Shown here in pieces: positions 7,255 through 23,798 of a stretch of 64,000 bases of DNA. The stretch's first letter is position 1. Each line of letters begins with the position of its first letter. The DNA comes from an uncultured archaeon. GTDB taxonomy: Archaea > Thermoproteota > Nitrososphaeria > Nitrososphaerales > Gagatemarchaeaceae. The DNA lies in assembly GCA_963799775.1 (NCBI GenBank), contig CAWCYD010000003.1, positions 1,216,001-1,280,000 of the forward strand, given 5' to 3'. The notes below the pieces were generated by a model that had not been told where the DNA came from, made no database searches, and saw only the letters and a list, made by a program, of their open reading frames with translations. The translations under genes and the position numbers were made by a program.

Positions 7255-9808
7255 GTGGACAAGGAAGCAATCGCCGCGCTACCGGTGCAACAGGCGCTCG
7301 AGCAGCTCCACACCTCGGTCGAGGGCTTGAGTCAGAGTGAAGCGGAGAGCCATCGCGCGACCTCGGGCCTCAACGTCCTCACGAAGACCCGGCATACGGC
7401 TCTGGACGTCCTCGGAAGGCAACTGAAGAGCTCGCTGATCTACTTGTTGGCCGTTGCCAGCATCGTCAGCTTTGCCATTGGCGATCTCTCCGATGGCATC
7501 ATCATCGCCGTCATCCTGGTGATCAACGCGCTGCTCGGCTTTGCGCAGGAATACCGATCCGAGCGGGCCGTCGAGAAGCTCTCCACCCTCATCAGCAAAC
7601 GAGTGTCCGCCAGGCGAGATGGCAGGACAGTGCAGCTGGACCAGGCTCAGCTCGTGCCGGGCGACATCATCTTCGTGGAAGAAGGGGATGTCGTCTCTGC
7701 GGATTGCAAATTGCTCACGGCGGAGGGTCTGCAGGTCAACGAAGCGCAACTGACGGGGGAATCAGTGCCCGTCACCAAAGCGGTCCAGATCCGGAGCACC
7801 CCAGATTACATCCAGCGGCGACGCGTCTCTGCTCTTCACCGGCAGCGTGATCGAAAAGGGGAAGGCCACCGCCGTCGTCTACGCCATCGGCGATGGGACA
7901 GAGCTTGGGAAGATCGCCTCCCTCTCGACGCGCACGCGCAAGGTGACCCAATACCAAAAATCGCTGCAATCCTTCAGCTCCCTGCTGATTCGGGTCGTGC
8001 TCGTGACCCTCGCGTTCACGTTTCTGGCCAAGCTGCTGCTCACGCGCGATCTCACCCATCTGCCGGCGTTCCTGCTGTTCGTCGTCGCCCTGGCCATCGT
8101 CGCCGTGCCGGAAGCGCTGCCGGTGATTGCCACGACGACCCTCTCCACCGGGGCGATGCACCTGGCCAAGAAGCAGGTGGTCGTCAAACGGCTCTCCTCG
8201 CTGGAAGACCTCGGCAACGTCACGCTGCTTTGCACCGATAAGACGGGAACGCTGACCGAGGGGAAGATGAGCATCCAGAAGATCGTGGCGGACGACCCTC
8301 TGCGCTTGCAACGATTCGCCGCTGCCACCGTGAAGTCCCTGAGCGGAGCGGGCGTAGCGCGTCAGGACTCTTTCGATCTGGCCTTTCTCGCCTACATCCC
8401 GCCCGATATACAGGAGCAGGCCAAGGCGTACCTGCAGGTCCAGGCCCTTCCCTTCGATCCAGAGACGCGCAGGAGCTGCATGGTCATCGAAGATGCCAGC
8501 TCGCACGCCCGCTATCTGGTGGTGCTCGGCGCGGTCGAAGCGCTGCTGGCGGTCAGCGATTGCGAGGGGCCGCAGAAGGAGCGATATCTGGCGGAGGTGA
8601 CCAGCGACGGCGCGCAAGGGCTGCGCGACCTCGCCCTGGCCTATCGCGAGCTGCCTGTCTCTGGGCCCATCGACATCCCGGAGTACGACCAGCACCTGAC
8701 TTTTTTGGGATTCGTGACGCTCGCCGACCCGCTGCGGCCAACCGCGAAAGAGACCATCGAGCGGGCGAAAGCCCTGGGGGTGGCTGTCAAGATATTGACC
8801 GGAGACAGCAAGGAGGTCGCGGCGTACATCGGGAGGCAGATTGGACTGGGAGGCGAGGTGCACACCGGGGATGAGCTGGAGAAGATGCCTCCCGAAGAGC
8901 TGCAGCGCGTTGCGGACAGCTGCGACGTCTTCGCGCGCGTCTCCCCCGCCCAGAAGTTCGCGATCATCGAGGCCCTCAAGCGCGGCCACGTCGTCGGCTA
9001 CCAGGGCGACGGGATCAACGACGCGCCGGCGCTCAAGATGGCGGACGTCGCTCTCGCGGTGGACAGCGCGACGGACGTGGCGAAGGAGAGTGCCGACATC
9101 GTCCTACTGGACCAAGACATGGGCGTGATCATCAACGGCATTGAAGAGGGGCGAACCATCTTCCTCAACATCGACAAGTACCTGAAGTACACCATGGTGG
9201 GGAACTTCGGCAACCTGTTTGCGCTCGTAATCCTCTACCTTCTCTCGCTCAACCTGCCGTTGCTCCCCGTGCAGTTGCTGTTGACCAGCCTCATCACCGA
9301 TGTCCCGCTTATCACCATCGCTTCCGACCGCGTAGACACCAAGGAGGCCATGAGGCCGGAGAAGTACAACACGCGGTCGCTGATGTCGATCTCGCTGGTG
9401 CTCGGCTCGTGCACCGCGCTTTTTGAGCTGCTGTACTTTGAGCTCGTCAGCTCCCGGTCGCTGCCTTTCGTGCAGACCGGCATGTTTCTTTTTCTCACCT
9501 TGCTTCAGTTCATCGTCATCGTTTCAATACGGAACCATTCTTACTTTTGGAGAGGCGTGAGGCCATCGTTTCTCTTAGCCGCAGCCGTCTTGCTGGCGTT
9601 CTTCGGCTCGTTTGCCCTCCCCTATATCCCCTTCACGGCTCGCCTGTTCTCGTTCACGCCTCTGGCTCTGAGAGACCTTGCGGTCATCGTAGGGCTGGCG
9701 CTGGTGTACCTTGTTGCCCTAGACGCGATCAAAGTCAGGTACTACAGGCGAGCGGACAAAGAAGGTTCGCCCTCGCTCGACGGGCAGAAATCTTCCCAGA
9801 AGAGATGA
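7255..9808 (+). CDS. P-type cation-transporting ATPase (MgtA-like), one frameshift near 7790-7830
   Basis: LTGES, VPEALP, CTDKTGTLT, FDPETR, ILTGD, GDGINDAP split across two overlapping ORFs. Confidence 0.9.
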
Positions 9809-10135
9809 CCGCGAGGTGCGTGTCCATCCAAGGCCAGGTGAGGCTTCGAGGGTTGCATTGGTTTATCCGATCTCCGCTAGTTCTGAGCAAGGATTATGGC
9901 TTTCTCTATCGGGAATAATCCAGCTAGGACGCCAGAGTACGGCGCAGTCCCTGATGTCACCGCAACTTGTCTCCGGACCTAGGTCCTCACTATTCTTTTT
10001 CCTGCTCGACGGTTCTTGACGAGCCCTTTCCCTCCGGGTGTCTCGACTGCGCGTGTCTTCGCCGCAGTCATCCTGCCGCCTCTGCGTTTTGTTGTGTTCC
10101 GAATCTCAAGACGTTGAGTAGAGCACCTGATCTAC

Positions 10136-10429
10136 TCAGGTGTGAGCCGAGGTCTGGGTCGCGAGCAGCGCGCTGCGTCCGAGCAGCTTCTTGTCCAGGA
10201 TGAAGATGATCACCTGGTCGCCCACTTCGACGCCAGCGTCTCCGCCGATCGGCTGGACGACGAACTTCCCGCCTCCGGTTAGCCTCGCAACCGTCGCTTC
10301 GACGACCGCGACGCCGGTCTTGGACTTGAAGACCGTCGCCCTCTCCCTGCCCCCTCCGGCCCTGGACTCGTTTCTGCCAGTGTCGGACGTCCGTTCTCTC
10401 TCGATTTCTCTTTCTGTGTCTGTTGACAT
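10136..10429 (-). CDS. Small hypothetical protein, possibly AbrB-like
   Basis: GGKFVVQP...GVEVGDQVIIFI resembles a swapped-hairpin motif. Confidence 0.35.
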   Translation of the reverse strand: MSTDTEREIERERTSDTGRNESRAGGGRERATVFKSKTGVAVVEATVARLTGGGKFVVQPIGGDAGVEVGDQVIIFILDKKLLGRSALLATQTSAHT

Positions 10430-10606: not shown

Positions 10607-10636
10607 TGGCGGGACCGGCAGGGTTTGATGCAAAAA
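10607..10636 (-). repeat. tRNA-Arg 3'-end repeat R1 (start of a type A arm)
   Basis: TGGCGGGACCGGCAGGGTTTGATGCAAAAA; compare 15011. Confidence 0.85.
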
Positions 10637-10700
10637 CGCAGCTAGAAGGTAGAATCCTGGAAGATTCCCCGCAATTGTCCTGGCGAACGAGAGGGGCGCA

Positions 10701-11012
10701 CTAAGGCTTCTTTATCCAGACCGCCGAATCCTCGACTTTGACCTGAAAGGTCGGCTCGGGCTTTTGTGCCGGACCAGCTACCACTTCCCCAGTCTTCATG
10801 TCGAACTTAGATCCGTGCCACGGGCATTGGATCACGGAACCTGTGAGCTTTCCCCTTCCAAGAGGCCCGCCCACGTGCGTGCATTTGTTCGCAACGGCAT
10901 ACATTTCGCCCTCTAGGTTGGCGACCACTACATCTATGCCGCTCACCTTCACCACCTTCATGGAGCCCACGGGAACTTCGGATGCTTTGGCGACCTCCTC
11001 GAACCCTTCCAT
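10701..11012 (-). CDS. Rieske [2Fe-2S] ferredoxin
   Basis: CTHVGG...CPWHGSKFD. Confidence 0.95.
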   Translation of the reverse strand: MEGFEEVAKASEVPVGSMKVVKVSGIDVVVANLEGEMYAVANKCTHVGGPLGRGKLTGSVIQCPWHGSKFDMKTGEVVAGPAQKPEPTFQVKVEDSAVWIKKP

Positions 11013-11112
11013 AACCTTCTTGCCATCCCGAGGATAGGTCGCCCGAGTAATTCTGCTTTTCCATCTGCTTGCCCGGTCGAATGCACGACGGAGGGTGAAA
11101 TACTAGGTGTTT

Positions 11113-11160
11113 TGGCGGGCCCGACAGGGCCCACCCCTGAATAGATTCTCAATGTGGAGT
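11113..11160 (-). repeat. tRNA-Arg 3'-end repeat R2 (type B arm)
   Basis: TGGCGGGCCCGACAGGGCCCACCCCTGAATAGATTCTCAATGTGGA. Confidence 0.85.
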
Positions 11161-11310
11161 CCCGGGCTCCACGCGGCGGGCAAGCCGTCAAGTCGCCGCA
11201 TCAAAATGACTACAAACTCGGCCATGGAATCGGCTCTCTCAAACGCCCGAGAAGCTTCTTCGATTGGCCGACTCTGAATTTCCAACCTTAGATGAGACGG
11301 GGATGTCGGC

Positions 11311-12357
11311 TCAGACTTTAGGAAGACTAGCGAAGCGCGACCGCTGGTAGCCTGCGAACACACCCTCGACCCCGGTCAAGACCACCATCACCCTGACCCT
11401 TCCGTGCATGTTCTCTTCGACCCTAGCACCCCAGACGATCTTCACTCCTGGTCGGAGAGCTGTCGTTATCCTCTCGCCCGCGGCTATGACCTCCTCAAGC
11501 CTTAGGTCGCTTCCCCCCGTTACGTGCACTAGCACTCCATACGACTTCGACGCATCGCGCAAGTCCAGGAGCCTACTTTCTATTGCCTTCATAGCCGCTT
11601 TCTCGACTCTTCCCTTACCAGAAGATTCGCTTACACCTATAGCGGCCAGCCCTCTTCGCTCCATTATCTCCTTCAGGTCCGAGTAGCTGATGTTGATGAG
11701 AGAAGCCGTGGTAATGGTCTCAGTGATGCCTTTCACAAATAGGCCGACCAGGTCGCTTGCTACTCCGAGCGCCTGCTCGAGAGGTAAATTACCTGCGACT
11801 TTGGAGAGCCTGTTATTGTCGATCGCGACCACCGTGTCGCAATACTCGCGAAGCTTCTCGAGACCCTTCCTGGCTTTTTTGTACCTGTATCTCTCAAAAG
11901 AGAAGGGAAGCGTGACGACGCCGATTTTCAGGATGCCTTCTCCTGGGAGCGCCTTCGCGAGCACGTTTATCGCGCCAGTACCAGTCCCTCCCCCCAAACC
12001 CGCACATAGGATGAGTATGCTCGACCCAGCAACCGCCTTTCTCAACTCCTGAAGACTCTCGTACGCCGCCTTTTCACCCACATCAGGGTATCCACCGGCA
12101 CCTTGACCGTGAGTGAGCTTCTCACCGATGAGAATCCTCCTGTCGGCTCTTGTCACGCTCAGGTGGACTGCGTCGGTGTTCGCGGCAATGAGTTTGCCTC
12201 CAGCCATGCCCTTCTCCTTTAACCAAGAAACAATGTTGCTACCGGCTCCACCCAAGCCAACGACGCAAACCTTGGGACGTGCGGCCATCATAGCCGCTAC
12301 TATCCTATCATCTTCCGACAAATCGTCGGATGCTGGATCTCCCTCCATAACATTCAC
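11311..12357 (-). CDS. ftsZ: Cell division protein FtsZ (divergent T7 loop)
   Basis: VVGLGGAGSN, AANTD, GQGAGG, GLGGGTGTGA, PFSFE, IDNNRL. Confidence 0.9.
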   Translation of the reverse strand: MNVMEGDPASDDLSEDDRIVAAMMAARPKVCVVGLGGAGSNIVSWLKEKGMAGGKLIAANTDAVHLSVTRADRRILIGEKLTHGQGAGGYPDVGEKAAYESLQELRKAVAGSSILILCAGLGGGTGTGAINVLAKALPGEGILKIGVVTLPFSFERYRYKKARKGLEKLREYCDTVVAIDNNRLSKVAGNLPLEQALGVASDLVGLFVKGITETITTASLINISYSDLKEIMERRGLAAIGVSESSGKGRVEKAAMKAIESRLLDLRDASKSYGVLVHVTGGSDLRLEEVIAAGERITTALRPGVKIVWGARVEENMHGRVRVMVVLTGVEGVFAGYQRSRFASLPKV

Positions 12358-12518
12358 GTCTTTCGAGTATCATTCATAAAGAATAAGCAATGTGCACGAT
12401 GTAAACGAAGCTGAAGTCTGTCCATCAATTCAGGTCATAGCCAGCTCCTTTCGGTCAGCTTGAGGTTCGAACCCAGCAGAGAGAGTTCGAGAGCAACGAA
12501 GGGTTTGGACTCGAACGG

Positions 12519-12601
12519 TGGCGGGCCCGGCAGGATGCGATTAGATAATTAAGCGAATCCGAGGCTGAGCAATTCGAGTCTCAAATTCGCTGCGACCGCA
12601 C
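12519..12601 (-). repeat. tRNA-Arg 3'-end repeat R3 (type C arm with 11-6-11 palindrome)
   Basis: TGGCGGGCCCGGCAGGATGCGATTAGATAATTAAGCGAATCC...TCAAATTCGCTGCGACCGCAC. Confidence 0.85.
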
Positions 12602-12895
12602 CTAACTCTCTCTTTTCAGTAGGCGCAGCCTACCTTGAGAAATCGACCTTAGGACTCCAGGAGACCCCTGAAAGAGATCTAACCGCCGCAAGAAATTTTA
12701 GGGGAGAATCACTGCAGCTAGAGTTGGACTTCCGCTTCGCCGCCTACGGCTCAAGGCATCCTAGTTCGGGGAAACCGAACTGCTAAGTGTGGCAAGTGAA
12801 AGGTAGTATTTGCAGTCAAGACCAAATTCACATTCACAGGGGCAAAGAGAGCGCACATTTTGTATCTCGCTCTGCTCAGCACTCGAGCCCTGACG

Positions 12896-13189
12896 CTAGA
12901 CTTGAGGCTCGATTTCCGCTTCCTTGACGAAGCTCTGGGCCTTCAGGGTCTTCAGAAGCTCCTCTGGAGTCACCTTTGCGTTGGCCATTTCCAGATAGAA
13001 GAGGTCGTACCCCGTCTTCTTGTCGTCCGAGCACTCGATTCCTCCCGCGAGAATATCGATGTTCCTCTCGCCCAATATCATGGCAATCTTGGCAAGAATC
13101 GAAGGGCGAGATTCGACCGTGAGGTAGAGGTCGAAGACCTTTTCGCCGGGGGGCGATACTACCCTCATCGACCTTAGCCGCTCCGACAT
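12896..13189 (-). CDS. Stand-alone ACT-domain protein
   Basis: LTVESRPSILAKIAMILGERNIDI, an ACT signature. Confidence 0.75.
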   Translation of the reverse strand: MSERLRSMRVVSPPGEKVFDLYLTVESRPSILAKIAMILGERNIDILAGGIECSDDKKTGYDLFYLEMANAKVTPEELLKTLKAQSFVKEAEIEPQV

Positions 13190-13276
13190 AAATCGGACTT
13201 GCCCATGGTAGGATTTAAGGGGAGCGGCTGCGAGATTGCGAATCCGGCTTTGACAGTCTAATTGAGCGTGAAAAGT

Positions 13277-13324
13277 TGGCGGGCCCGGCAGGGCCCGCGC
13301 CTGAACAGGTTCTGAAAGTGGATT
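13277..13324 (-). repeat. tRNA-Arg 3'-end repeat R4 (type B arm)
   Basis: TGGCGGGCCCGGCAGGGCCCGCGCCTGAACAGGTTCTGAAAGTGGA; abuts the vapC stop. Confidence 0.9.
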
Positions 13325-13702
13325 TCACTTTCCAATCTCTTTCTGCAGTAGCTCGGCCTGGCGCTTGTCGAACGTAGCGAGGTCTGAGGTTAGCTCTAGC
13401 GCTAGAGCGATGAATATCGCGTCGTATATCGAGCGGTGGCTCTTGGCCGCCAGAGAGTATCCATGCTTCATCAGTTCTTCCCCAGGACGAATCACCCGAA
13501 TTCTTCCCGATTCTACCAACCCATAGAGTATGGACACGTAGGGTACCCCGTCGCCCAGATCTTTTATCAGGAATTGATGCTTCCACACTGCGTTGACCGC
13601 TTCATACAGGGCCAAGTCGACCGTAATCAGAATGTCCTCTTCAAGCAGTTCCTTGCGCCTAAGAAGCCCCTCGACTATGTAGCTGCTGTCCGCAACCTTC
13701 AA
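13325..13702 (-). CDS. vapC: PIN-domain toxin VapC
   Basis: VADSS, LALYEAVNA, SIYDAIFIALA, LATFDKRQ. Confidence 0.9.
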   Translation of the reverse strand: MKVADSSYIVEGLLRRKELLEEDILITVDLALYEAVNAVWKHQFLIKDLGDGVPYVSILYGLVESGRIRVIRPGEELMKHGYSLAAKSHRSIYDAIFIALALELTSDLATFDKRQAELLQKEIGK

Positions 13703-13917
13703 CGTCTTCTGTCCTCGTTAATTCGCCTGACTTCTTCGGCGGTCGTCGTCCTAATCTCGTTACTCCGTTGGAGCTTCTCTAGCTTTCCGATGAGCTCGTC
13801 AGACTTCCTCGTGCTCAAGTAGAGTTCGAGCGCCTCTCTGACCGACTTTGAAAGCGCTCCGTGTTTGAGGAGCCTCTTCTTTTCTTCATCTGAAACCCGG
13901 ACGGTAATGGTAGGCAT
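13699..13917 (-). CDS. vapB: Ribbon-helix-helix antitoxin VapB
   Basis: MPTITVRVSDEEKKRL...SKSVREALE; overlaps the vapC start. Confidence 0.85.
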   Translation of the reverse strand: MPTITVRVSDEEKKRLLKHGALSKSVREALELYLSTRKSDELIGKLEKLQRSNEIRTTTAEEVRRINEDRRR

Positions 13918-13947
13918 GTCTTACTCTGCGTAAGACACTGTGTCTTA
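13918..13947. promoter_or_regulatory. Overlapping palindromic operators of vapBC
   Basis: GTCTTAC-N5-GTAAGAC and TAAGACA-N3-TGTCTTA between the ATG and the repeat. Confidence 0.6.
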
Positions 13948-13953
13948 AGTTTT

Positions 13954-14065
13954 TGGCGGGCCCGGCAGTTTCCGCACCAAAAATGGTGCTAGAAATGGTT
14001 CCGTTTCGCGGGTTCATGCCTCAATGGATTCGAACTCCCGAGGAGTCGGCTTGTCTCGCTCATTC
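13954..14065 (-). repeat. tRNA-Arg 3'-end repeat R5 (type A arm, ~112 bp)
   Basis: About 90% identical by eye to 21496-21606. Confidence 0.9.
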
Positions 14066-14097
14066 ATGCTTTCGCTCGAATCGATGTCAGGAAGCTC

Positions 14098-14379
14098 CTA
14101 TGCGTCAGGAAAGAATCTCCTCATGAACGCCATTATCTCTTCGCTCTGCCTCGGGTTGAGCGAGACCTGTAGACCGTAGGATGTCGGCTTGGGAACTACT
14201 GCACCCTGACGGACCAGCTGCTTCGCCATCTGCTCCACACGCTTCAGTCCGTGCTTTCCGAGTTCTGATTCCTTCCATCCTTTCTTGAGGTTATCGAGAG
14301 CTGTATGACTTGCTCCCCAGTTTCCTCTTTTGTGGAGCTTGAACAGGAGTGTCGCCTTGATATCATCGTCAGAAAGCAT
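14098..14379 (-). CDS. Small hypothetical protein (winged-helix-like)
   Basis: Clean 93-aa ORF divergent from an HTH gene; GNWGASHT and KPTSYGLQVSLNP. Confidence 0.6.
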   Translation of the reverse strand: MLSDDDIKATLLFKLHKRGNWGASHTALDNLKKGWKESELGKHGLKRVEQMAKQLVRQGAVVPKPTSYGLQVSLNPRQSEEIMAFMRRFFPDA

Positions 14380-14449
14380 AAGTTCACTTATGATACTTCG
14401 AAGGTTCTTATTTAAATACTCGCCAGGTTAGTTAGTTACAGGGAGAAAA

Positions 14450-14794
14450 ATGACATACAAGCCTGACGAGACATTGTTGTTGAAATACCTTGGAGCGAGC
14501 CCAACGCTTCGAATCATTGATTTTTTCCTGGACAACCCACTCTCTGACTACTCGAAGAACGAGATCGCGAAGAATCTGGCGATGAGCCGTGTGACGTTTT
14601 TCAAGTACTGGAAGCAGTTGGCGAAGTCCGGGGCTGTTAAGCCAACGAGAGAGATCGGAAGGGCAACTTTGTACAAGCTGGACAAGGAGAACGACGTGGT
14701 GAAGCAGACGATCAAGCTCGATATGACGCTTGCCAGAAAGTCGATGGAAAAAGCGGCCGAAGAATACAAGAAACCGATAACTATGCGAAGCTGA
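14450..14794 (+). CDS. Winged-HTH transcriptional regulator
   Basis: SPTLRIIDFFLDN...YSKNEIAKNLAMSRVT...IGRATLYKL. Confidence 0.8.
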   Translation: MTYKPDETLLLKYLGASPTLRIIDFFLDNPLSDYSKNEIAKNLAMSRVTFFKYWKQLAKSGAVKPTREIGRATLYKLDKENDVVKQTIKLDMTLARKSMEKAAEEYKKPITMRS

Positions 14795-14891
14795 ATTCAT
14801 ACCCTTTTTGCATCTCTTTCATTCCGTCCAGACCTCCTTTCCCTCTCGCGAGAGAACGACACGAAATCCAATCAGGCTGAGAATATACTAT

Positions 14892-14925
14892 TGGGCCGGA
14901 AGGGATTCGACCCCTTGACCTGCCG
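14892..14925 (-). repeat. 3' fragment of a different tRNA (Ile/Met-like), possible att remnant
   Basis: Reverse complement CGGCAGGTCAAGGGGTCGAATCCCTTCCGGCCCA has a T-stem, T-loop and acceptor strand; no 5' half is present. Confidence 0.7.
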
Positions 14926-15010
14926 AGAAATCTAGGTAATCGCGGGCATCCGGCTAGATAGAGCGTGTTTCAACCCCTAATGAGCGCATGCAGTCTACTT
15001 CCAGGTAGTT

Positions 15011-15095
15011 TGGCGGGCCCGGCAGGATTTGATGCAAAAATGGCGCCAGAAAGGGTTCCATTTCGCGGGTTCATGCCTCGATGGTTTCGAACCCG
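15011..15095 (-). repeat. tRNA-Arg 3'-end repeat R6 (type A arm; longest tRNA match)
   Basis: GCGGGCCCGGCAGGATTTGA identical to the tRNA into the T-loop, then type A sequence. Confidence 0.9.
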
Positions 15096-15125
15096 TGTTG
15101 GCTAGTGAATCCCTGAGCAGAGATG

Positions 15126-15578
15126 CTACAAAGCGTTGACTTGAAGGGGCTGAAGATGGGAGCTTCGACCGAATTTCGTTGCTAAGGTCTGACGAACCTT
15201 TCCTAGCCAAGCAGGAGATTGTTTGTATTTGCAGGATTGCAGGTTGTGCAGCCTGGCGAAGACCAAATATACGAAAGTCATCGTGCCCTTTCCTCCGGGA
15301 GCGCCGGTCATCATCATTGAAAAGACGGGCCCGGCCGGGAACAGACTAATCAGTTCTGGGAGCGCATTGGCTCCGCTGAGAACTTTTCTGTCTGGGAGCA
15401 CAATATGAAAGGACCGGTATCGGAGATTGCGGGGCACTGCGTCTAGCAATCCTGATGCATCAGCTATGTCCAGCGGGACAAAATCGACCTTCCGGCGAAT
15501 GTCTAAGATGGCCACGACCTGCTTGAACTTCGCACAGGGCCCGCAATCCGCGTCATAGGCCATGACATACCTGGACAA
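15126..15578 (-). CDS. DCC1-like thiol-disulfide oxidoreductase
   Basis: YDADCGPC motif, FHIVLPD...SGANA; start approximate. Confidence 0.8.
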   Translation of the reverse strand: MSRYVMAYDADCGPCAKFKQVVAILDIRRKVDFVPLDIADASGLLDAVPRNLRYRSFHIVLPDRKVLSGANALPELISLFPAGPVFSMMMTGAPGGKGTMTFVYLVFARLHNLQSCKYKQSPAWLGKVRQTLATKFGRSSHLQPLQVNAL

Positions 15579-15872
15579 GCAATTTCGCCTGCCAATTATT
15601 CTGACGACGGTCACATAAAAATATGCCCCGAGCCTGGATGGTTCAGGGACTGAGGGAGTCCCAGGCGCCCGAATCTCGGCAGCGCAGTAGAGGCTCCTTT
15701 CACGGCACTTTGTTCCCAAAGGCCTCTGTCAAAGCTTGAGGTCCCTCCTGCGGCCTCTCAAGGGTCGGGGCCTAAATCGAACTCAGACAATTGGGTACGC
15801 GGCTAGTGGAAAAAACGGTTAGACCATAATTCCGCCTCATTCTGACACAATACGCTCAAACGTGGCTATTGT

Positions 15873-15896
15873 TAGCGGGCCCGGCACGGCCCGCCA
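15873..15896 (-). repeat. tRNA-Arg 3'-end repeat R7 (type B-like hairpin)
   Basis: TAGCGGGCCCGGCACGGCCCGCCA. Confidence 0.8.
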
Positions 15897-15923
15897 CGCA
15901 TGGGTAGCAAATCCGGCTCGCAT

Positions 15924-16631
15924 TCAAGCGTTTAGTTTTGCAATTTCGCCGTCCCAAGTTGCGGTGAGAACCCCCTCTCTGCTCAAGTAAAACACTATGC
16001 CGTCCAGATATGGTATCCACTTGGTCTCCTTGAATCGTCCGCCAAAGATGGTCTCTATCAGGACTATCAGCCCGTAATCGTGCCCCACCCACAGCCGCAG
16101 GAGCGGGGCTTGACGGGCCTTCAAGTCCTTGCTAACGCTGCTTACGACGAACTGCTTTACCTCCGAAGGGGGTTTCATCATCCCGAAAGGAAGGCTCCCG
16201 TCCAGCCATTCTCTAAGGAATGGCAGTCCTCCCACCTTTCCCCTATGCGACTCCATCGCATTTCTGTCCTTGGCGAAAAAATGGGTCACGGCCAAGGAAT
16301 CGTCTATTCCAATGTCTGATATGGTACCAGAATTCATCTGTGAGTAGCCATTCATGATGCCGGTCCCAGTCTCTACGCAGCGGGGGACGGGACTATAGCC
16401 TACGACGAGGTTCAAACCTCTAGGGAGCGACTGGCCGAATCTCTTCGATTCGCTGTGCCCGTGAGGAGTCAACCCTGCGACCATATTCGGATTGGCGACC
16501 TCGCCTCTTCGACCTTGATCCCTAACGGAATGTCTGAGGATGATCCCCATCCGATCGGACTCCATGGAATTGATAACGTCAATCAGTCGGTCTCCGTAAG
16601 GGATTTCTTCGGCGGGCCTCTCAGGTTCCAA
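15924..16631 (-). CDS. Histidine phosphatase family protein
   Basis: ILRHS, LTPHG, SPVPRCVETG, VGHD. Confidence 0.85.
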   Translation of the reverse strand: MEPERPAEEIPYGDRLIDVINSMESDRMGIILRHSVRDQGRRGEVANPNMVAGLTPHGHSESKRFGQSLPRGLNLVVGYSPVPRCVETGTGIMNGYSQMNSGTISDIGIDDSLAVTHFFAKDRNAMESHRGKVGGLPFLREWLDGSLPFGMMKPPSEVKQFVVSSVSKDLKARQAPLLRLWVGHDYGLIVLIETIFGGRFKETKWIPYLDGIVFYLSREGVLTATWDGEIAKLNA

Positions 16632-16724
16632 CTCTCAAACGTCCGATAGGGCATGAATATGAACCATGTTCAATTTCCTATCCCATGCCCAAGAGGTTCG
16701 AATCCATTTCTGGGGAAGTTTTGG

Positions 16725-16766
16725 TGGCGGGCCCGGCAGGATTTGCTTAACTAATTAAGCGACACC
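16725..16766 (-). repeat. tRNA-Arg 3'-end repeat R8 (type C arm)
   Basis: TGGCGGGCCCGGCAGGATTTGCTTAACTAATTAAGCGACACC. Confidence 0.9.
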
Positions 16767-16796
16767 TTGATCTCGGTGTTTCGATTCCCCGAGAAA

Positions 16797-16970
16797 TCAA
16801 TCATTGGAGCGAACAGAATGTTGGCCCAACCTTACCAGAATCAAGAGGCAAGAAATGAAGCCGCATCCTAGTATCACGACGACCGATTCAGACGCGGTCC
16901 CGTTGAGCTCTATCGACGTTGCGACCATCGTGAAAGCCCAAACCAACGAAATGGCAACGTTTGCGGTCAT
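16797..16970 (-). CDS. Small two-TM peptide (57 aa, not in the ORF track)
   Basis: Manual translation MTANVAISLVWAFTMVATSIELNGTASESVVVILGCGFISCLLILVRLGQHSVRSND. Confidence 0.4.
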   Translation of the reverse strand: MTANVAISLVWAFTMVATSIELNGTASESVVVILGCGFISCLLILVRLGQHSVRSND

Positions 16971-17201
16971 GAACCTAGTGGGGATGCCGCTGTTCTTCGA
17001 CCCGGTCTCTGAGCGACTCGCGGGGTTCTTGGGCCGACGAGCCTTAGGCTAAAAGTTAGCGTCAATCGCGGCAACGCTCGAACAAAGTCAGACCGACCAA
17101 AACAGGTCGTTCAAATCTCTGCGACCGCACACCAATCACATCAGACGGCCGGAATCCTCGAAATCCTCTTTGGGAACCGATTCTCCGAGGGCGGACCGCG
17201 G

Positions 17202-18374
17202 ATGAAGCGAAAAGGAGTCTGCTACGATGTAGGGCGGGTCATGCTTGGGGCCGATTGGCGACCTAAATTCGACCCTCGAGCCGTCCACCGGGAACTCGAA
17301 ATCATCAAGACCGACATGCACTGCAATGCCGTTAGAATATGCGGCCTCGACATCGATAGGCTCATGACCGCGAGTGAGGACGCCCTGTCACAAGGGCTGG
17401 AGGTCTGGCTATCTCCCGAGATGTGGGACAAAAGCCAGGATGAGACCTGCGAATACATCGCGAGGGCGGCGGAGCGGGCGGAGGGGCTCCGTCAACGGTG
17501 GCCCGGAAAGCTGGTCTTCAGTGTGGGCTCCGAGCTGAGCCTCTTCTCTCAGGGGATGATCGAGGGCAAAAACGTCTTTGACCGGATATCCCGTTCCTCG
17601 TTCTTTAGCGATATATCGGCCGGGACGTACAACGGCCCGCTCAATCTGTACCTGTCGAATCTGAGCGAGGCCGCGAAGAAGTCGTTCCGTGGGCCGCTCA
17701 CCTACTTCTCCTTGCCGTTCGAAGCTGTCGACTGGAAACCGTTCGATTTCGTCGGGGTAGACCATTACAGGGACGCGCAGAACAAAGTCGCCTATGGTCG
17801 GATGATAAGCAAGTACAACGCATTCGGCAAGCCTGTGATTGTAGGGGAGTTCGGGTGCTGCACTTTCCGGGGCGCGGAGCTGCTCGGAGGAAACGGCTTC
17901 ATGATAACCTTCGGGATGATTGAAGGCCTCCTCGGGCCAAACCAGAAGCTTCCCAAGATGTTCTTGGACATGGCGCATGTCCCGCCCCGAGCCGACGGGC
18001 ACTACATCCGTGACGAGGAGCTCCAGGCACGCGAGCTGGTCGATCAGCTGGGGGTGCTCGACGCAGCGGGGGTTGAGGGCGCGTTCGTGCAAACCTTCGT
18101 GGTTCCTAACTCCCCGTACCGCTCGGACCCCAGGTACGACACCGACATGGCGAACTTTAGCCTGGTGAAGAGCTTCCAGGAGGCAGAAACGGCGGAAGAG
18201 TTCAGGAGACAGACCATCCGTGGGGCCAGGGAAGTGATTGGGGTGGACCTCGACCCCCGCGTTCTGGATGGTTTTTCAGGTCGAATGGGCGAGCATGGAG
18301 TGACATATCCGGATCTGCCGTGGGAGCCGAAGGAGTCTTTCAGGGCGGTAGCGGAGTATTATGCGAAACATTAG
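17202..18374 (+). CDS. TIM-barrel glycoside-hydrolase-like protein (family often annotated 'abortive infection protein')
   Basis: KGVCYDVG, HCNAVRICG, VGSEL, GKPVIVGEFG, WEPKESF. Confidence 0.75.
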   Translation: MKRKGVCYDVGRVMLGADWRPKFDPRAVHRELEIIKTDMHCNAVRICGLDIDRLMTASEDALSQGLEVWLSPEMWDKSQDETCEYIARAAERAEGLRQRWPGKLVFSVGSELSLFSQGMIEGKNVFDRISRSSFFSDISAGTYNGPLNLYLSNLSEAAKKSFRGPLTYFSLPFEAVDWKPFDFVGVDHYRDAQNKVAYGRMISKYNAFGKPVIVGEFGCCTFRGAELLGGNGFMITFGMIEGLLGPNQKLPKMFLDMAHVPPRADGHYIRDEELQARELVDQLGVLDAAGVEGAFVQTFVVPNSPYRSDPRYDTDMANFSLVKSFQEAETAEEFRRQTIRGAREVIGVDLDPRVLDGFSGRMGEHGVTYPDLPWEPKESFRAVAEYYAKH

Positions 18375-18480
18375 GAAAAAATAACTTCGTGTTGAATCCT
18401 GTTGGAACCCGACGCAATCTGAACTTAAAGTTCAAGTTGCTGCCACCGCACAGTTCGAATTCAACAGACCGCGTTTCGGA

Positions 18481-18563
18481 GGATTCGCTTAGTGATTTAA
18501 GCGGGCCCAGGCAAGAATTCGGCTCGTCGCAATCTAGGTGAGCGTGAAAGGTTGGCAGGCCCC
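18481..18563 (-). repeat. Compound junction: 11-6-11 palindrome plus two degenerate tRNA-end repeats (R9, R9b)
   Basis: GGATTCGCTTA-GTGATT-TAAGCGGGCCCAGGCA and TGAGCGTGAAAGGTTGGCAGGCCCG (compare 13263-13287). Confidence 0.75.
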
Positions 18564-20792
18564 GATGGTCTAGCGCCGAATGTCATGTTCTTTCGTGTGA
18601 GGAAGGAAATGATGAGAAGGGAGGCGAGAAGCAGAGGAACGAGCATTACTGTCGGGAACTCCGGAACGGTTGACGATGTCGTAGTCTGGGGATCGCCGAT
18701 GACCAAAGGCGAACCCGTTAGACTGGCGACCGGGATATCTCCGCAGACCATGCCAAGGGAGCTGTTCGTGCTGGCTGAATCCGATATTGCCGCAGCAGCG
18801 CTCCAAGCACCGGCCGAGTAATATTCGATCAAGGTTTTCGAACCTACATACGCGCTCGACACGCATGTGTGCGCCGTCCCCCCTGTAATCCCGGAGATGC
18901 TGAGGTCGTAGAACTTCAAGGCCGCACCGCTTGCGGGGCCCAGAGAAACTGTGCCCGTGTTAGAAGGTTGAGCAGCCAGCTGCTGTGTGTTTATGGTTGC
19001 TGTGGCGCCGCTCGTTCCGGAGACCCCGACGCTGATTCCCGTGGTCGGGAATGACTGGGTCGGGACCGAACCTGAGGAAACGGCCGCGGAACCTGCTTGG
19101 GTCGACTGGCATGTGTCGACGACCGGGTTGGGCGACACCGGAGTCGTTGAATCGTTTCTGAAAGTCCCGTTACAGGCGTTGTTTATGGTGCCGGAGTTCG
19201 AGATTGTCGCTAGGTCGAAGTTGGTGAAGGAACCGGAGTTGGCCACAGTACCCCCCATCATGTTGGTTAGAGTGGCACCGACGAGCGCGCCACTGGCGAG
19301 CGCGCCGTTTATGAAGGTGGCACCGTAAACGTTCGTGATCACTCCGGAGGCGTTGTTGTTCAGAGTGCTCCAGACTCGGACGAAGCCGCCCGCGTTGTTC
19401 GTTATGGTCCCGCTGTTGGATGTATGATATGCAAATGTCACACTGCCCAGGTTGGATATAGTCCCAAAGTTGGCAACGACAGAGTCGAAAGATATTGTTC
19501 CTGTGTTGGAGATCATGCCCTTGTTGACGATGTTGCCGCCCGCATCATTGGTATCGTAGGTGAAGGTGCCGGAATTGGCGATTGTGCCCGTGTTGGTGTT
19601 GGTGAAGCTCTGCTCGTTCGTCATCGTGGCGCCCTGGTTGTTGTTGATCGTGCCCGAGTTGGTCGCGATGCCTGTCCCCGGTGATCCGTAGAAGCCAAGG
19701 CTGCCTCCCTTGTTGTTGGTGATGGTTCCCGCATTGTTGAAATTGTAGAAGCTGTTGAAAGTGCCGCTGTTGGTGATTGTTCCCCCTGCGTTGTTGGTGA
19801 CTGTGGACGGCCCAAAAGCGGTAATGATGCTGCCGGAGTTTGTTATCTGCCCTCCTGGGTCGCCCGTGCTGTCTGGACCAGCCTGCGTCGTAATGAAACC
19901 GTCGCACTCGATATTGGCGCCGGCGTCCACGTCGACCTTCCCGCTGTCGCTGACGTACAAGGTGACGCCGGTCGGGAGGTACAGCTCAGCGCTCGGCGAT
20001 ATCTCGAGCACGGTTGCGATTCCGGCGTAGCCTACCGTGAGAGTGCTCCCTGACATCATGTTAAAGGTCCCCAGTGCTGGTAAAGGTGCCAGAAAAGTAG
20101 GGCGTGCCCAATGGCGCGGTCGAGCCCGTCACCTTTACCGTCTGGCCTGAGTACAGCTCCATCCAGCCGCCGTTGTTGATCGTGCCGGGGTTGAGGAGAA
20201 CCCCCGTTCCGAGTCCGTAGTTATCGTCCTGCAGGGCACCGCCCAGGAGGTTGTCAATCGTCCCCTGGTTGGAGAAGGTTCCCCCGCCCGCGTAGATCAG
20301 ACCGCCGGCGCTGTTCGTGAGCGTCCCCGTGTTCGTGAACGTGCAGTCGCTCGATATCGTCCCTGCGTTCGTTATGGTGCCTGAGCTTGTTACCGTGCCA
20401 CAGACGGTGCTGGCGATAGCGCTCTGGATCTGCCCCGTGGAAGTGATCTTCATGACTCCGGAGTTGGTAATCGTGCCCGCGGAGTCCGACATGATGGCAG
20501 ATATCGTGAATGTCGCACCTGGGCCCACGGTAAGAGTCGCCCCGGGGAATATCGACAAGGAGGTTCCCGCCGGGAGCTGCCCGCTCGCTGCAACATAGCA
20601 GTCGACTGTAGCGTTGGACCACGATCCTCCCAGGCTCGCGCAATCGGCGGTGCTTTGGTGCAGGGAGCCAGGATTGTTGCCGTTGAGATTGTATGAGACT
20701 TGGGCACCCGCGTCAGGAGGCAGAAACGCAAGGATTGACACAAACGCCAGAATCACTGCAAGAACCAGTGGGGCTTTGTGAGAAACCCTCAA
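18497..20792 (-). CDS. Secreted beta-solenoid (GTITN-repeat) surface protein with PEF-CTERM anchor; +1 frameshift near 20070
   Basis: Signal peptide, NxGTIxN repeats, VPEFP-TM-RK tail; deleting one G of GGGG joins the two ORFs (TGTFNMMSG). Confidence 0.8.
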
Positions 20793-20833
20793 CCGCTCGT
20801 AATTTCAAGATTCAGTCTATTAACCATGATGTC

Positions 20834-20883
20834 TGGCGGGCCCAGGCAGAGCCCACCCCTGAACAGGTTCTCAAAGCGAATTC
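20834..20883 (-). repeat. tRNA-Arg 3'-end repeat R10 (type B arm)
   Basis: TGGCGGGCCCAGGCAGAGCCCACCCCTGAACAGGTTCTCAAAGCGAA. Confidence 0.85.
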
Positions 20884-20904
20884 CTAAGGATTGCAAGGAC
20901 TGGT

Positions 20905-21409
20905 TTAGTAGAACCCGGAGGCGACCATGAAGACCGATGTGACGATGAGAAGGAGTACCGTCAGGGTGGCCAGGTCAGAGGCTCGTTTTGAGCGTCTTTG
21001 GAAAGTCCGGAGGTGGCTGATGTTGACCGGCGGCCTGCATTTCCTTTATCATTTTTATGGCTCTCAGTTGGATTGGGACGGCAACGAATTCCGATATCAA
21101 GAAAGCAATGAAACCGATGGCGAGCCCGATTGTGAGATACATGCCGAAAGAGGTCGAGAAGGAGAGAACCTTGAAGTCCCCCCCGGAGTAGTTATAGAGG
21201 AAAAGCACTCCGAACAGTATGGTTGTGCCTGCCGTGATTTGGAAGAACCGGACTACTCTGGGGACGACCTTCACGAGGAACTCTCCCGAGCTTGCGGGTG
21301 AAAGCTTCGCGAGAGCCGGTCCTACCACAAAGGCGAACATGATCCCGCCCCCCAGCCATCCAATTGCTGAAATGACGTGGAGCCAGGCGAGAATCGCGGT
21401 GAGAAGCAA
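20905..21409 (-). CDS. Four-TM membrane protein (CopD/DUF4149-like), frameshift near 20990
   Basis: WLHVISAIGWLGG...FVVGPAL; fourth TM continues in another frame. Confidence 0.65.
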
Positions 21410-21495
21410 GTGGGAACAAAATCTTGTCCGACTATATGAATATGATTTCTTGGGCTTCTTCGCCGCGTTCTGAAAATTACCGCTGAGGAGAAATT

Positions 21496-21606
21496 TGGGG
21501 GCCCGGCAGTTTCCGCACCAAAAATGGTGCTAGATTTGGTTCCGTTTCGCGGGTTCATGTCTCGATGGATTCGAACTTCCGAGGAGTCGGTTCGGCTCAC
21601 TCATTC
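21496..21606 (-). repeat. tRNA-Arg 3'-end repeat R11 (type A arm)
   Basis: Near-identical to 13954-14065; contains the stop codon of the upstream NTase gene. Confidence 0.9.
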
Positions 21607-22323
21607 TCCCTTTCCAGCCAGCATTCCCTTTACTGTCTTCAAATGTTCAAGGGTCAGCTTGATTTGCGAAATTATGTCGATTCGCAGGCGGAATTCTGCC
21701 TTAAGCGAGGATGGGAACTCCTTGCTTCCAAGCCTGTTGATGCCGGAATCCAGTTGCTTTGCCAGCTTGGCCCTAGTCCCAGTGTTAGTAAAATCAGCCA
21801 CCGCATTCCAGTCTGCCTGTTCTCCCAGCATTACGATGTCTCTCATGTCCGTATTTCTTGCCGGGTGCAACTTCATCGCAATTAGCAATTCCTTCTTCGG
21901 AACCATGGCCATAGTAGAATCGGTTACCCCGACGACATTGGCCTCAGTGGAACTCCGCATCAGGAGTTCGTAACTCCATTCCCCTCCAGTATCCCTGCAC
22001 ACAACACTATTGATTGACAGATCGACGGAAACCCTTCGTCCTCCGATCAGTTTTACGTACTTGACAGTTTTCGCACCGTAGGTTCCCTTGCCCACGTTCG
22101 ACGCTCTTGCCTTCCTGTATCCTTCACCAGTCAATACTTTTCCAAATGATTCGAGATTCTTTTCAGAAATGACAATATCGCAGTCGACCGACAACCGATG
22201 AGACGCCAGAGCGCTGACCGCATAACCGCCAATCACCACGAACTTGCCCGAATGCGAATGGAGAACCCTAACTATTCGAATAACTTCAGTTTCCCTCGCA
22301 GTCAGATCGGCGGCTTGCGACAT
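21601..22323 (-). CDS. Nucleotidyltransferase toxin, AbiEii-like (type IV TA)
   Basis: FVVIGGYAV...HRLSVDCD, LIAMKL...DMRDI. Confidence 0.75.
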   Translation of the reverse strand: MSQAADLTARETEVIRIVRVLHSHSGKFVVIGGYAVSALASHRLSVDCDIVISEKNLESFGKVLTGEGYRKARASNVGKGTYGAKTVKYVKLIGGRRVSVDLSINSVVCRDTGGEWSYELLMRSSTEANVVGVTDSTMAMVPKKELLIAMKLHPARNTDMRDIVMLGEQADWNAVADFTNTGTRAKLAKQLDSGINRLGSKEFPSSLKAEFRLRIDIISQIKLTLEHLKTVKGMLAGKGE

Positions 22324-22327
22324 TCGA

Positions 22328-22939
22328 TCACTCGTCGTATTTTATTCCAAGACCGAGCTTGTATTCTTCGTCGAGCATCTCAAGAGCCGGCTCGTACGCG
22401 TAGATATTTTTCTTGGCGAATTCAATGGTCTCTTTGAGCGGCTCAACCCTCAACCCTTCGACCGTTTCTGATTCGATTCTCTTTGCTGGATGCATCAGAT
22501 AGAAGACCCCGAAGACAGTCTCTTTTGGAATCATATCGACAAGGAATGATTTCTTGCCATTGTTTCTGAAGAATCGTTTCCACTTTTCCACGTCTTTTTC
22601 GATGACCTTCAAATGGATTGGATAGAAACCGAAGAACCTATCCACATTATACCCTCCCCTAGTCCAAGCGAATACTGCATCCACGTCTGACAGTGCGTAT
22701 GGGTATTCTGCCTTCTTCAGAAGCTCGTATGCACCGCCTACGTCATTTCTCATCGTCACGTAATCATCTACCGACTTGACCCTGTACTTTCCGTATTCCA
22801 GATGCTCGAGCATCCCCTTCTTCGCCATGTCGTGCAATACCTTTCGGGGATTAGGGCTGGAGAACGTTGCGGCAAACTCTCCGCTGGTGAACTCCCTCCT
22901 CCACTTGCCGAGGATTGCCCAAAGTTCATAGTACGACAT
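22328..22939 (-). CDS. AbiEi-like antitoxin with N-terminal wHTH
   Basis: RKVLHDMAKKGMLEHLEYGKY; lies 4 bp upstream of the NTase gene. Confidence 0.65.
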   Translation of the reverse strand: MSYYELWAILGKWRREFTSGEFAATFSSPNPRKVLHDMAKKGMLEHLEYGKYRVKSVDDYVTMRNDVGGAYELLKKAEYPYALSDVDAVFAWTRGGYNVDRFFGFYPIHLKVIEKDVEKWKRFFRNNGKKSFLVDMIPKETVFGVFYLMHPAKRIESETVEGLRVEPLKETIEFAKKNIYAYEPALEMLDEEYKLGLGIKYDE

Positions 22940-23104
22940 AATGTTACTATGGTGGTTACATCTTATAAAGATGGTGTATCAGGCATATCAAGCGACTTAC
23001 TCTGTCGGCTTCGCTCATTCCCCCTTTCCCATATCTGATTCCAAAGCGAGATAGCCAGTGTCAAGCTCATATCCTTAGAGAAGTAACGACAAAGCAGGGA
23101 TCGA

Positions 23105-23578: not shown

Positions 23579-23723
23579 TTTTGCTATAAAGCTGACAATG
23601 GCGCAAAAATTCCGCCACCCACAGCAATATCAGAGATCCTCCAACTTCGGACTGAAGGAATCTTGAAATAGTTTAATTCGTCTTAATTCTGACTAAATAG
23701 GTGAATAACGGGGGTAGTTTTAG

Positions 23724-23798
23724 CGGGCCCGGCAGGATTTGAACCCGCGACACCGGGGTCCGAAGCCCCGTGCCCTATCCGTGCTAGACTACGGGCCC
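23724..23798 (-). tRNA. tRNA-Arg(TCG), no intron, CCA not encoded (followed by CTA)
   Basis: GGGCCCG acceptor, anticodon arm CGGGG-CTTCGGA-CCCCG, T-arm GCGGG-TTCAAAT-CCTGC. Confidence 0.95.

Follow-up and report, generated by a model that had tools for sequence, protein, structure and literature searches.

Positions 10609-23798 of the window analysed here, a 64,000-nt stretch of DNA (contig 3, 1216001-1280000) from an archaeal genome of 2.47 Mb in 3 contigs (59% G+C), probably represent an accretion array of integrase-less mini-elements, which are bounded by attachment (att) sites and arranged in tandem at the 3' end of a tRNA-Arg(TCG) gene, and the conserved arms beside the repeated cores probably correspond to attP arms. 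This reading is carried by the repeats themselves, by three arm families that stand beside diverse cargo, by the shuffled order of the cassettes among related genomes, by integrase genes (int) that directly follow a B-like arm in autonomous elements, and by a boundary of complete sequence identity that falls exactly at a core. As for single cassettes, the odds that they excise and integrate on their own, in trans, appear to be about even. In the following, G-numbers denote genomes (the one under study and its relatives), L-numbers denote loci or contigs, and C1, C2, C3 and so on denote contigs.

According to the proposed scheme, circular elements bearing attP would have recombined successively with the tRNA gene, and each integration would have regenerated the tRNA while moving the older elements and a copy of the 13-nt identity segment away from it in the downstream direction. 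A junction read in tRNA orientation would then consist of P arm, core and P' arm, and the cassettes, with 1-3 accessory genes each, would be comparable to cis-mobilizable elements (CIMEs) or satellites.

The tRNA-Arg(TCG) gene and the repeated core

The core is the final 13 nt of tRNA-Arg(TCG) (23723-23735; plus-strand reading GCGGGCCCGGCAG), and is made up of the T-stem 3' strand, the acceptor-stem 3' strand, the discriminator base and one further C. All six exact copies in the 2.47-Mb genome lie within the window (12521, 13279, 13956, 15013, 16727 and 23723), while copies with one mismatch number four in the array (10609, 11115, 15875, 21497) versus nine in the other 2.46 Mb, both strands included. 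Decayed cores are found at 20835, which has a 1-nt insertion, and at 18556, which is degenerate. Beyond the tRNA, the core is repeated 11 times at 10609-21509, in a single orientation throughout and downstream of the intact gene, as is typical of the direct repeats of tRNA-targeting elements. The cores delimit 11 cassettes of 506-2279 bp (median 862 bp), which span about 13 kb in total. Across the genus, the core with one mismatch allowed was by itself no commoner than a reversed control, and therefore only clusters and arms were used as markers.

tRNA-Arg(TCG) is the sole tRNA gene detected in the window, and Rfam at E ≤ 1 returned the intact tRNA alone, besides one chance plastid match. The conserved side of the array begins with this gene, followed by an IF-2B family gene. 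On the distal side, no further junction left of 10609 was recognisable in 9760-10420; a P-type ATPase at this edge of the array is apparently split (overlapping frames at 7255-8241 and 7847-9808), which may reflect a frameshift or a chance open reading frame (ORF).

Arm families

The preliminary description held that the sequence beside the core is non-random and falls into three arm families (A, B and C), and the repeat comparison agrees with it. Its placement of the arms had to be corrected: they lie upstream of the core in tRNA orientation, that is, right of the core on the plus strand, where they replace the tRNA body. Each arm belongs to the cassette on the arm side, which is the tRNA side (the P arm in the attP x attB scheme), and the sequence across the core from it is the P' arm of the next, older cassette.

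Type A arms at 13958-14049 and 21499-21590, earlier estimated to be about 90% alike, are 94.6% identical over 92 nt, and the two copies noted as diverged align at 89.7% over 58 nt (15035-15092) and over just 31 nt (10606). Type B arms at 11112-11158, 13276-13322 and 20834-20876 are mutually 85-88% identical over 43-47 nt, and the partial copy listed with them, at 15875, is a B arm that has lost an internal segment. For type C, 12517-12556 and 16723-16762 share 87.5% identity over 40 nt.

Inverted pieces of tRNA 3' regions are found in all three types. In type B the acceptor strand is repeated, giving two inverted GCGGGCC half-sites around a 6-bp CGGCAG, within which strand exchange might take place, as this is the last segment common to all junctions and the tRNA. 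Type A carries the T-arm 11-mer of the tRNA itself in inverted form (TCGCGGGTTCA), of which the genome has four copies, namely in the tRNA and in three A arms. Type C carries the last ~20 nt of a different tRNA in sense orientation on the plus strand, and the downstream TCAAAT...TGCGACCGCAC had been correctly located at 12581 and 17111. The fragment matches the tRNA end at C3:1670669 as well as the att region beside other integrases of the family described below. Such second-tRNA 3' fragments are present at 12581-12601, 17111-17130, 18434-18451 and C2:235096, in or near C arms and opposite in direction to the Arg core; the gene for a 390-aa protein sits between two of them, which hints at a nested insertion or at an att site of dual specificity.

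The P' arms also fall into families. The P'-1 motif (TGAGCGTGAAAAGTTGG or a close variant) directly precedes the next core in 7 of the 9 type C cassettes with a determinable far end, two of the seven (12521 in the window, 12496 in G017) being syntenic and hence not independent, and it is found at the far end of none of 17 type B and none of 7 type A cassettes. An eighth type C cassette has the motif beyond an intervening core-like site, which probably arose by chance. Cargo of unrelated kinds enclosed by the same pair of ends is as expected of a circularisable mini-element, and a type C unit would accordingly have the C arm at one end and TTGAGCGTGAAAAGTTGG at the other. The left-flank motif that had been reported as common to 13263 and 18539 was recovered as repeat family D10; it corresponds to P'-1, and its association with the C arm is the clearest among the P' families.

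Junctions and cassettes

The tRNA gene, the junctions and the cassettes are as follows, from the distal end towards the tRNA.

10609-10621: junction 1, core with one mismatch, then a diverged type A arm (~10622-10650); its left flank belongs to the "GAGTTCATAATGAGCTTATTATTG" P' family
10622-11114, minus strand: cassette 1 (506 bp core to core), Rieske [2Fe-2S] protein at 10701-11012 (Pfam PF00355, E = 2.5e-21)
11115-11175: junction 2, core with one mismatch and type B arm, GAAT-AG-ATTC replacing GAAC-NN-GTTC
11176-12520, minus strand: cassette 2, FtsZ paralogue at 11311-12357 (Pfam PF00091, PF12327)
12521-12610: junction 3, exact core and type C arm with an imperfect inverted repeat GGATGCGATTAG..TTAAGCGAATCC; sense-oriented 3' end fragment of another tRNA at 12581-12601
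12611-13278, minus strand: cassette 3, ACT-domain-like 97-aa ORF at 12896-13189 (weak Pfam ACT match, E = 3.6e-4); terminates in the P'-1 motif at 13262-13278
13279-13340: junction 4, exact core and type B arm with a perfect hairpin and GAAC-AG-GTTC
13341-13955, minus strand: cassette 4, PIN-domain toxin at 13325-13702 (Pfam PF01850) and, upstream of the toxin gene, a putative 72-aa antitoxin at 13699-13917
13956-14073: junction 5, exact core and type A arm; inverted T-arm 11-mer at 14006
14074-15012: cassette 5, 93-aa ORF at 14098-14379 (minus strand) and winged helix-turn-helix (HTH)-like 114-aa ORF at 14450-14794 (plus strand), with weak HTH matches only
15013-15130: junction 6, exact core with 20 nt identical to the tRNA, and diverged type A arm
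15131-15874, minus strand: cassette 6, DCC1-like thiol-disulfide oxidoreductase at 15126-15719 (Pfam PF04134)
15875-15925: junction 7, core with one mismatch and without encoded CCA; B arm with internal deletion
15926-16726, minus strand: cassette 7, 235-aa protein at 15924-16631; P'-2 arm at its end (16703-16726)
16727-17130: junction 8, exact core and type C arm at 16740-16790; 3' end fragment of the second tRNA at 17111-17130
17131-18555, plus strand: cassette 8, 390-aa protein of no known family at 17202-18374; ends in the P'-1 motif at 18538-18555
18556-18568: junction 9, degenerate core CAGGCCCCGATGG; repeat family D10
18497-20792, minus strand: cassette 9, two repeat-rich secreted or surface-type proteins of 520 aa and 243 aa
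20835-20896: junction 10, core with 1-nt insertion and type B arm
20897-21496, minus strand: cassette 10, predicted membrane protein of 144 aa at 20975-21409 (weak DUF2269 match)
21497-21614: junction 11, core with one mismatch and type A arm, 94.6% identical to the arm at 13956
21615-23722: cassette 11, adjacent to the tRNA, nucleotidyltransferase-like protein of 240 aa at 21601-22323 and a 203-aa protein at 22328-22939 (both minus strand)
23105-23578, plus strand: third gene of cassette 11, 157-aa protein with a start resembling a twin-arginine (Tat) signal
23723-23798, minus strand: intact tRNA-Arg(TCG) gene, attB-bearing (ARAGORN; Rfam tRNA model, 55.8 bits)

The cargo genes of the 11 cassettes are mutually unrelated. 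The 235-aa protein of cassette 7 reads like a histidine phosphatase from its RHxxR...H motif, and no Pfam match was obtained for it; the second protein of cassette 9 matches the haemagglutinin repeat (PF05594, E = 1.5e-7) and has internal repeats. The FtsZ-family gene is cassette cargo as well, and several remoter paralogues (67-70% DNA identity) are found elsewhere in this genome and in related ones. No recombinase was detected in the 11 cassettes by a PF00589 search or by tblastn with 14 integrases of the genus, and the five PF00589 matches of the genome all lie outside the array. The cassettes are att-flanked units without integration and transfer genes, as CIMEs are.

Most P' arms open with an encoded CCA, while the current tRNA gene ends in GCTAA without CCA, as does the junction at 15875; the P' end of cassette 11 likewise has no encoded CCA. 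Because CCA is carried by the P' arms, CCA encoding of the tRNA gene would be set by the latest cassette integrated. Introns are apparently common in the tRNA genes of the whole genome: ARAGORN reported 18 such genes when introns were not searched for and 37 when they were, several of the introns called being doubtful.

Recurrence, cargo diversity and cassette order

The whole stretch was searched against 40 relatives, and matches were obtained in 36 of the 41 genomes (G000 counted). Type B arms are present in G011, G013, G017, G018, G022, G008, G003, G009, G019 and G020, in ten soil metagenome contigs and on contig 2 of the genome itself. Type C arms occur in G011, G017, G022, G003, G008, L032, two metagenome contigs and on the same contig 2, and A-like arms in G013, G006 and one metagenome contig. 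The cargo was clustered by the 700 nt beside each arm (two of the A windows extend into the neighbouring cassette), and 30 B arms gave 18 clusters, 10 C arms gave 9 and 7 A arms gave 7. With so many cargo clusters per arm family, the arms are not confined to larger duplications of the same cargo, the objection that the preliminary description had raised against its own proposal. That proposal, of reusable att arms attached to different cargo, is borne out by B, C and A-like arms beside unrelated genes in other species and in soil metagenomes.

The att-arm reading is also supported by the way the cassettes recur, namely singly, reordered, and at other tRNA genes. Together with its B arm, the FtsZ cassette is found in G011, G022 and G017 at 89-91% identity, and the PIN cassette in G017, G003, G008 and a metagenome contig. 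The 235-aa cassette occurs as a single unit in at least 8 genomes, including G022, G011, G006, G018, G020, G013 and G017, and its rank varies: its P' arm abuts the tRNA in G016 and G019, it is second in G018, it is fifth from the tRNA here, and in G011 it abuts the FtsZ cassette. The 390-aa gene is present in ten genomes, with many copies within the genus. Second copies exist in the genome under study for both the 235-aa cassette (92%, C3:46013-46994) and the 390-aa gene (96%, C2:211268-212417), the former between two tRNA-Arg(CCT)-type cores and adjoining an integrase-bearing element. Synteny with the window extends over the tRNA-side flank of G018 (79% over 8.3 kb), whereas the array content differs, and other cassettes make up the arrays that G018, G013 and metagenome contigs L046, L047 and L053 have at the same tRNA. 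As well as the internal deletion of the B arm at 15875, a deleted junction in G011 fuses two cassettes.

Several observations were made on further loci. An island-like region on contig 2 (C2:211256-216200 and C2:235096-235634) has Arg-type cores, B and C arms, the 96% copy of the 390-aa gene and a frameshifted integrase, and no intact tRNA-Arg gene was recognised beside it. In G017, tRNA-Arg(TCG) (C7:1220036-1220113, L099) and the array (C1:1150494-1153360) lie on different contigs, and all that follows the tRNA is the P' arm found in front of the FtsZ cassette in the window. Public assembled contigs of one soil study cover parts of the stretch (share 0.18), and one joint among them, from 13324 to 15910, equals the arrangement of relatives and is neutral on excision in this strain. 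Among viral contigs, searched for viral or episomal forms, two exact patterns (a B junction and a P'-1 junction) were unmatched.

Integrase family and autonomous elements

No PF00589 match was obtained near the arrays of five relatives. By tblastn with integrases of the genus, a family of ~440 aa was found immediately adjacent to cores, in G011, G017 and G007 and also at two places in the genome under study. The following loci were recorded.

L018:10599-11924: ~440-aa integrase (G011; 441 aa)
L020:15422-16747: ~440-aa integrase (G017; 441 aa)
C3:~47.9-49.2 kb: ~440-aa integrase, own genome
C3:1347680-1348945: ~440-aa integrase, own genome
C3:1415577-1416836: ~440-aa integrase, own genome

The family has members in 21 of the genus' 23 genomes, frequently several per genome and frequently directly after a tRNA gene, and is 22-29% identical to a PF00589-positive integrase of the genome under study. 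Searches gave no match in Pfam or NCBIfam and one weak integrase match in PHROGs, while a profile of 14 members matches archaeal XerA (PDB 4a8e, E = 6.9e-8; 5hxy, E = 8.6e-4). In this alignment box I (GlRp) aligns, and the YvLRrY box aligns to HqLRH. Five residues are invariant (R150, K201, R280, H307 and Y315). At the first position of the HxxR box, where most tyrosine recombinases have His, the family has Y277.

In the subgroup of G011, G017, G001 and G010, int starts 60-120 nt from an antisense core, with B-like sequence between them. This B-like stretch reads GGCAG-GGCCCCC, or GAACGGGTTC in G001 and G010, and is followed by a conserved CGTTATTAGG, which may be a promoter. Since the type B arm is the arm between core and int in autonomous elements, which occupy sites of the same type in sister species, the B cassettes would be their non-autonomous relatives, integrated and excised in trans. 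The copy of the G011-type subgroup in the genome under study (C2:214883-216197) is frameshifted, and an intact, more distant member of the family is present in its element at tRNA-Arg(CCT).

A sharp boundary comes from two species-level genomes: G011:C5:1-12000 and G017:C1:1153346-1165345, which include the integrase copies of these genomes, are 100.000% identical over 12,000 nt, starting exactly at the core, whereas the adjoining FtsZ cassette is just 87.7% identical between them. Such identity bounded at a core would be the signature of a recent site-specific insertion of one element in two backgrounds. Autonomous elements that use the same cores range from 4.6 kb to >12 kb. A canonical element of 9.7 kb is also present in the genome (C3:120735-130412), with a 17-nt direct repeat of a tRNA 3' end and a PF00589-positive integrase beside that tRNA. 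An integrase of the element's own beside att, which the 11 cassettes of the window lack, was found in G011, G017, G007 and at C3:47.9-49.2 kb. Elements that target tRNA genes and keep int intact on integration are known as the "pNOB8 type".

For the A and C arms, nhmmer searches with arm profiles, run on 46 integrase-bearing loci, turned up no convincing arm beside an integrase; a weak type C match in L062 was not upheld when the sequence was read. Other recombinases were considered as well. An SSV-type split integrase (after Sulfolobus spindle-shaped virus) was rejected as the source of the arms, because the genome has no PF16795 match and the array no integrase similarity, the open frame across the type A arms changes mostly nonsynonymously, and int of the relatives is intact and starts after the arm. 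A serine recombinase was rejected too, the genome being without a PF00239 match.

Inverted repeats in the arms

The motifs of the preliminary description proved less regular than it had stated. The type B hairpin GCGGGCCC-GGCA-GGGCCCGC is perfect at 13279 and imperfect in the other copies, and GAAC-AG-GTTC is found at 13279 and 20835 but not at 11115. The 11-6-11 palindrome of type C is an inverted repeat that is perfect at C2:235270 in the same genome but imperfect in both window copies, which fit 12 bp with a 4-nt spacer better. The type A palindrome GCACCA-AAAA-TGGTGC is present only in the near-identical copies at 13956 and 21497, and is absent from 15013, 10609 and the A-like arms of other genomes.

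Pairing was counted from alignments of 12 type C and 28 type B junctions. In the type C inverted repeat, 84.7% of cells pair, versus 23-46% with the partner slid, but there is one double-sided change only, and 285 of 500 shuffles reach as high. The two inverted repeats of type B pair in 86.5% and 93.8% of cells and hold three double-change cells, a number attained by 3 of 500 shuffles; one position fails to pair in 17 of the 28 sequences. Conservation of the palindromes across genomes, expected in the preliminary description, thus holds for B and C as far as the sequence is concerned, whereas covariation is weak (B) or at shuffle level (C) and the A palindrome is not conserved. In B and C, then, it is the sequence of the inverted repeats that is conserved, and signs that pairing itself was selected for are weak or absent. 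Conservation at the sequence level without clear covariation fits double-stranded protein-binding sites better than attC-like folded strands. It is known that attC sites have a conserved folded structure and little sequence conservation, and the junctions did not follow this pattern, their arms falling into sequence families that keep pairing with weak covariation (B) or none (C), no dedicated attC covariance model having been run. The sites look like double-stranded att sites that share identity with the tRNA gene, rather than single-strand sites defined by structure, and of the two readings offered earlier, attP arms or attC-like sites, we retain the former and find no support for the latter.

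Alternative explanations

Pure decay is the main rival of the accretion array. It supposes that the cassettes are stumps of full-size integrase elements after deletions, never mobile alone, and that the arms are shared via related parents. The autonomous elements on the same cores, the frameshifted integrase beside a core in the genome itself, the decayed junctions and the one deleted junction are all consistent with it, and the available text of a CIME review gives this route for bacteria (PMC5704250). However, independent deletions would not repeatedly yield identical boundaries, and the 235-aa unit, a 0.83-kb single-gene cassette, has a core at either end in at least 8 genomes, at varied ranks and at two tRNA genes. 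Type C cassettes with unrelated cargo moreover retain both matched ends, so that decay alone appears unlikely to us. As to a derivation of the cassettes from an autonomous element by deletion, the type B arm is similar to the arm in front of int, but deletion intermediates were not seen. An integron-like platform, in which a host recombinase captures promoterless cassettes via attC-like folded sites with the tRNA end as attI, would suit the small cassettes (median 862 bp, 1-3 genes), their toxin-antitoxin content, their mostly uniform gene orientation and the inverted repeat in every arm. It is nevertheless very improbable: the conserved tRNA side has no recombinase gene in the window or in G018, no PF00589 match was found near the arrays in the window or five relatives where an intI gene at the head would be expected, and the integrases that were found sit within mobile elements instead of at a fixed array head. 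The conservation of the inverted repeats as sequence, with weak or no covariation, and the unconserved type A palindrome argue against it too, and the shared segment is identical to the tRNA gene, as in classical attP x attB recombination. The least credible of the alternatives, with scarcely any probability, is that the repeats act as tRNA-like punctuation, serving as processing or termination signals between accessory genes and not as recombination scars. It agrees with the majority of genes reading towards arm and core and with the CCA encoded in most core copies, but only the intact tRNA matches an Rfam family at E ≤ 1, the arms put unrelated sequence where the tRNA body would be, the cassettes differ among genomes and move from one to another, and an integrase gene abuts the same site.

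The accretion array itself has to be weighed against several observations that do not favour it. No integrase lies in or beside the array of the window, the nearest B-type integrase of the genome is the frameshifted one on contig 2, and the 46 integrase-bearing loci yielded no cognate integrase for A or C arms. In the assembled contigs that were analysed, neither a circular form nor an empty site was seen. The junctions at 15875, 18556 and 20835 and the G011 fusion are decayed, so part of the array may be immobile. The B arms do not track the G011-type integrase, as G018 has B arms and its best integrase match is 44% identical, and in G017 the array is separated from the tRNA-Arg(TCG) gene by the contig division. 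The complete identity between G011 and G017 could in principle be a binning or assembly artefact, both genomes being metagenome-derived.

Beyond the accretion array, a wider view may be offered tentatively, which we regard as possible but rather doubtful. A tRNA-anchored cassette system in soil Thaumarchaeota might do the integron's job by other means, with single accessory genes enclosed by portable end modules that are specific to each family (P' and P), circularised and inserted at tRNA-Arg by a tyrosine integrase family that is particular to the lineage and escapes Pfam and NCBIfam, and exchanged between species as ~1-kb units. The end modules, some with att fragments of two tRNAs, would turn an ordinary gene into a cassette. 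As to the mechanism for building cassettes that the preliminary description had implied, we can only infer one; what is observed is junction decay, cassette fusion and matched end pairs.

Comparison with known systems

Tandem integration at tRNA genes is familiar, and what may be new here is the density of the array, with 11 integrase-less units in 13 kb, and their typed, reusable ends. In a limited, non-exhaustive literature search of main texts without supplements, single-gene cassette arrays with typed arms were not found described for archaea. If the units move alone, a little-studied group of soil archaea would be able to trade single accessory genes, such as those for redox proteins, toxin-antitoxin pairs, extra FtsZ and surface proteins. 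The locus also provides a compact test system for archaeal site-specific recombination, with a 13-nt core, three arm families and a largely unrecognised integrase family. The main interest accordingly lies in the compact cassette form, the matched end modules and this integrase family.

Judging from the available texts, the closest described system is the tandem ssrA islands of Dehalococcoides, next comes the CIME/accretion model, and then the tycheposon-shaped islands. The accessible part of the Dehalococcoides report describes islands in tandem downstream of ssrA, each bounded by a 20-bp repeat of the 3' end with a conserved motif beside it, strain-variable in content, and some of them without the integration module and proposed to be cis-mobilizable (PMC3146451). 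The array described here is similar in its tandem units beside a small RNA gene, its short 3' end repeats and its additional conserved flank. The Dehalococcoides islands, according to the same text, are bacterial, use the serine recombinase DsiB, measure several kilobases and mostly have their own integration module, whereas the present array is archaeal, involves the tyrosine recombinase family and consists of 0.5-2.3 kb units without integration genes and with three arm families.

Streptococcal CIMEs, as presented in the available text of the review (PMC5704250), are likewise att-flanked and devoid of integration and transfer genes. Repeated integration piles them up at the 3' end of a tRNA gene or of some other gene, and the integrase of a related element can mobilise them. 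They are, however, described as decayed integrative and conjugative elements or integrative and mobilizable elements of many kilobases, in contrast to the units here, which are of single-gene size, recur as such across species and, in type C, have matched ends. The tycheposon-shaped islands of Prochlorococcus (bioRxiv 10.1101/2020.12.28.424599) resemble the array, as far as the accessible text goes, in being tRNA-adjacent, in having full or partial tRNA copies and accessory "plug-in" cargo, and in that successive integrations push older elements inward. Those islands are cyanobacterial and carry integrase and replication modules, and their partial tRNAs are described as scattered remnants, unlike the dense array of arm-typed mini-cassettes found here.

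Within the same phylum, integrated elements of Thaumarchaeota also target the 3' part of tRNA genes with very short att sites (median 17 bp), and the part of that paper available also mentions arrays that arise when a site is re-used (PMC6563490). These elements were found through their integrases and are larger, and the same part does not mention arrays of integrase-less single-gene cassettes or arm families. Integrons, of which archaeal ones are also on record (bioRxiv 10.1101/2022.02.06.479319), share small, mostly single-gene cassettes, inverted-repeat sites and toxin-antitoxin cassettes with the present array. Unlike integrons, the array has no IntI beside it, its sites have sequence in common with a tRNA gene, its inverted repeats are conserved in sequence rather than in structure and its arm families are few. 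Taken together, the integration hotspot is of a known kind, and its compact cassette-like form is unusual.

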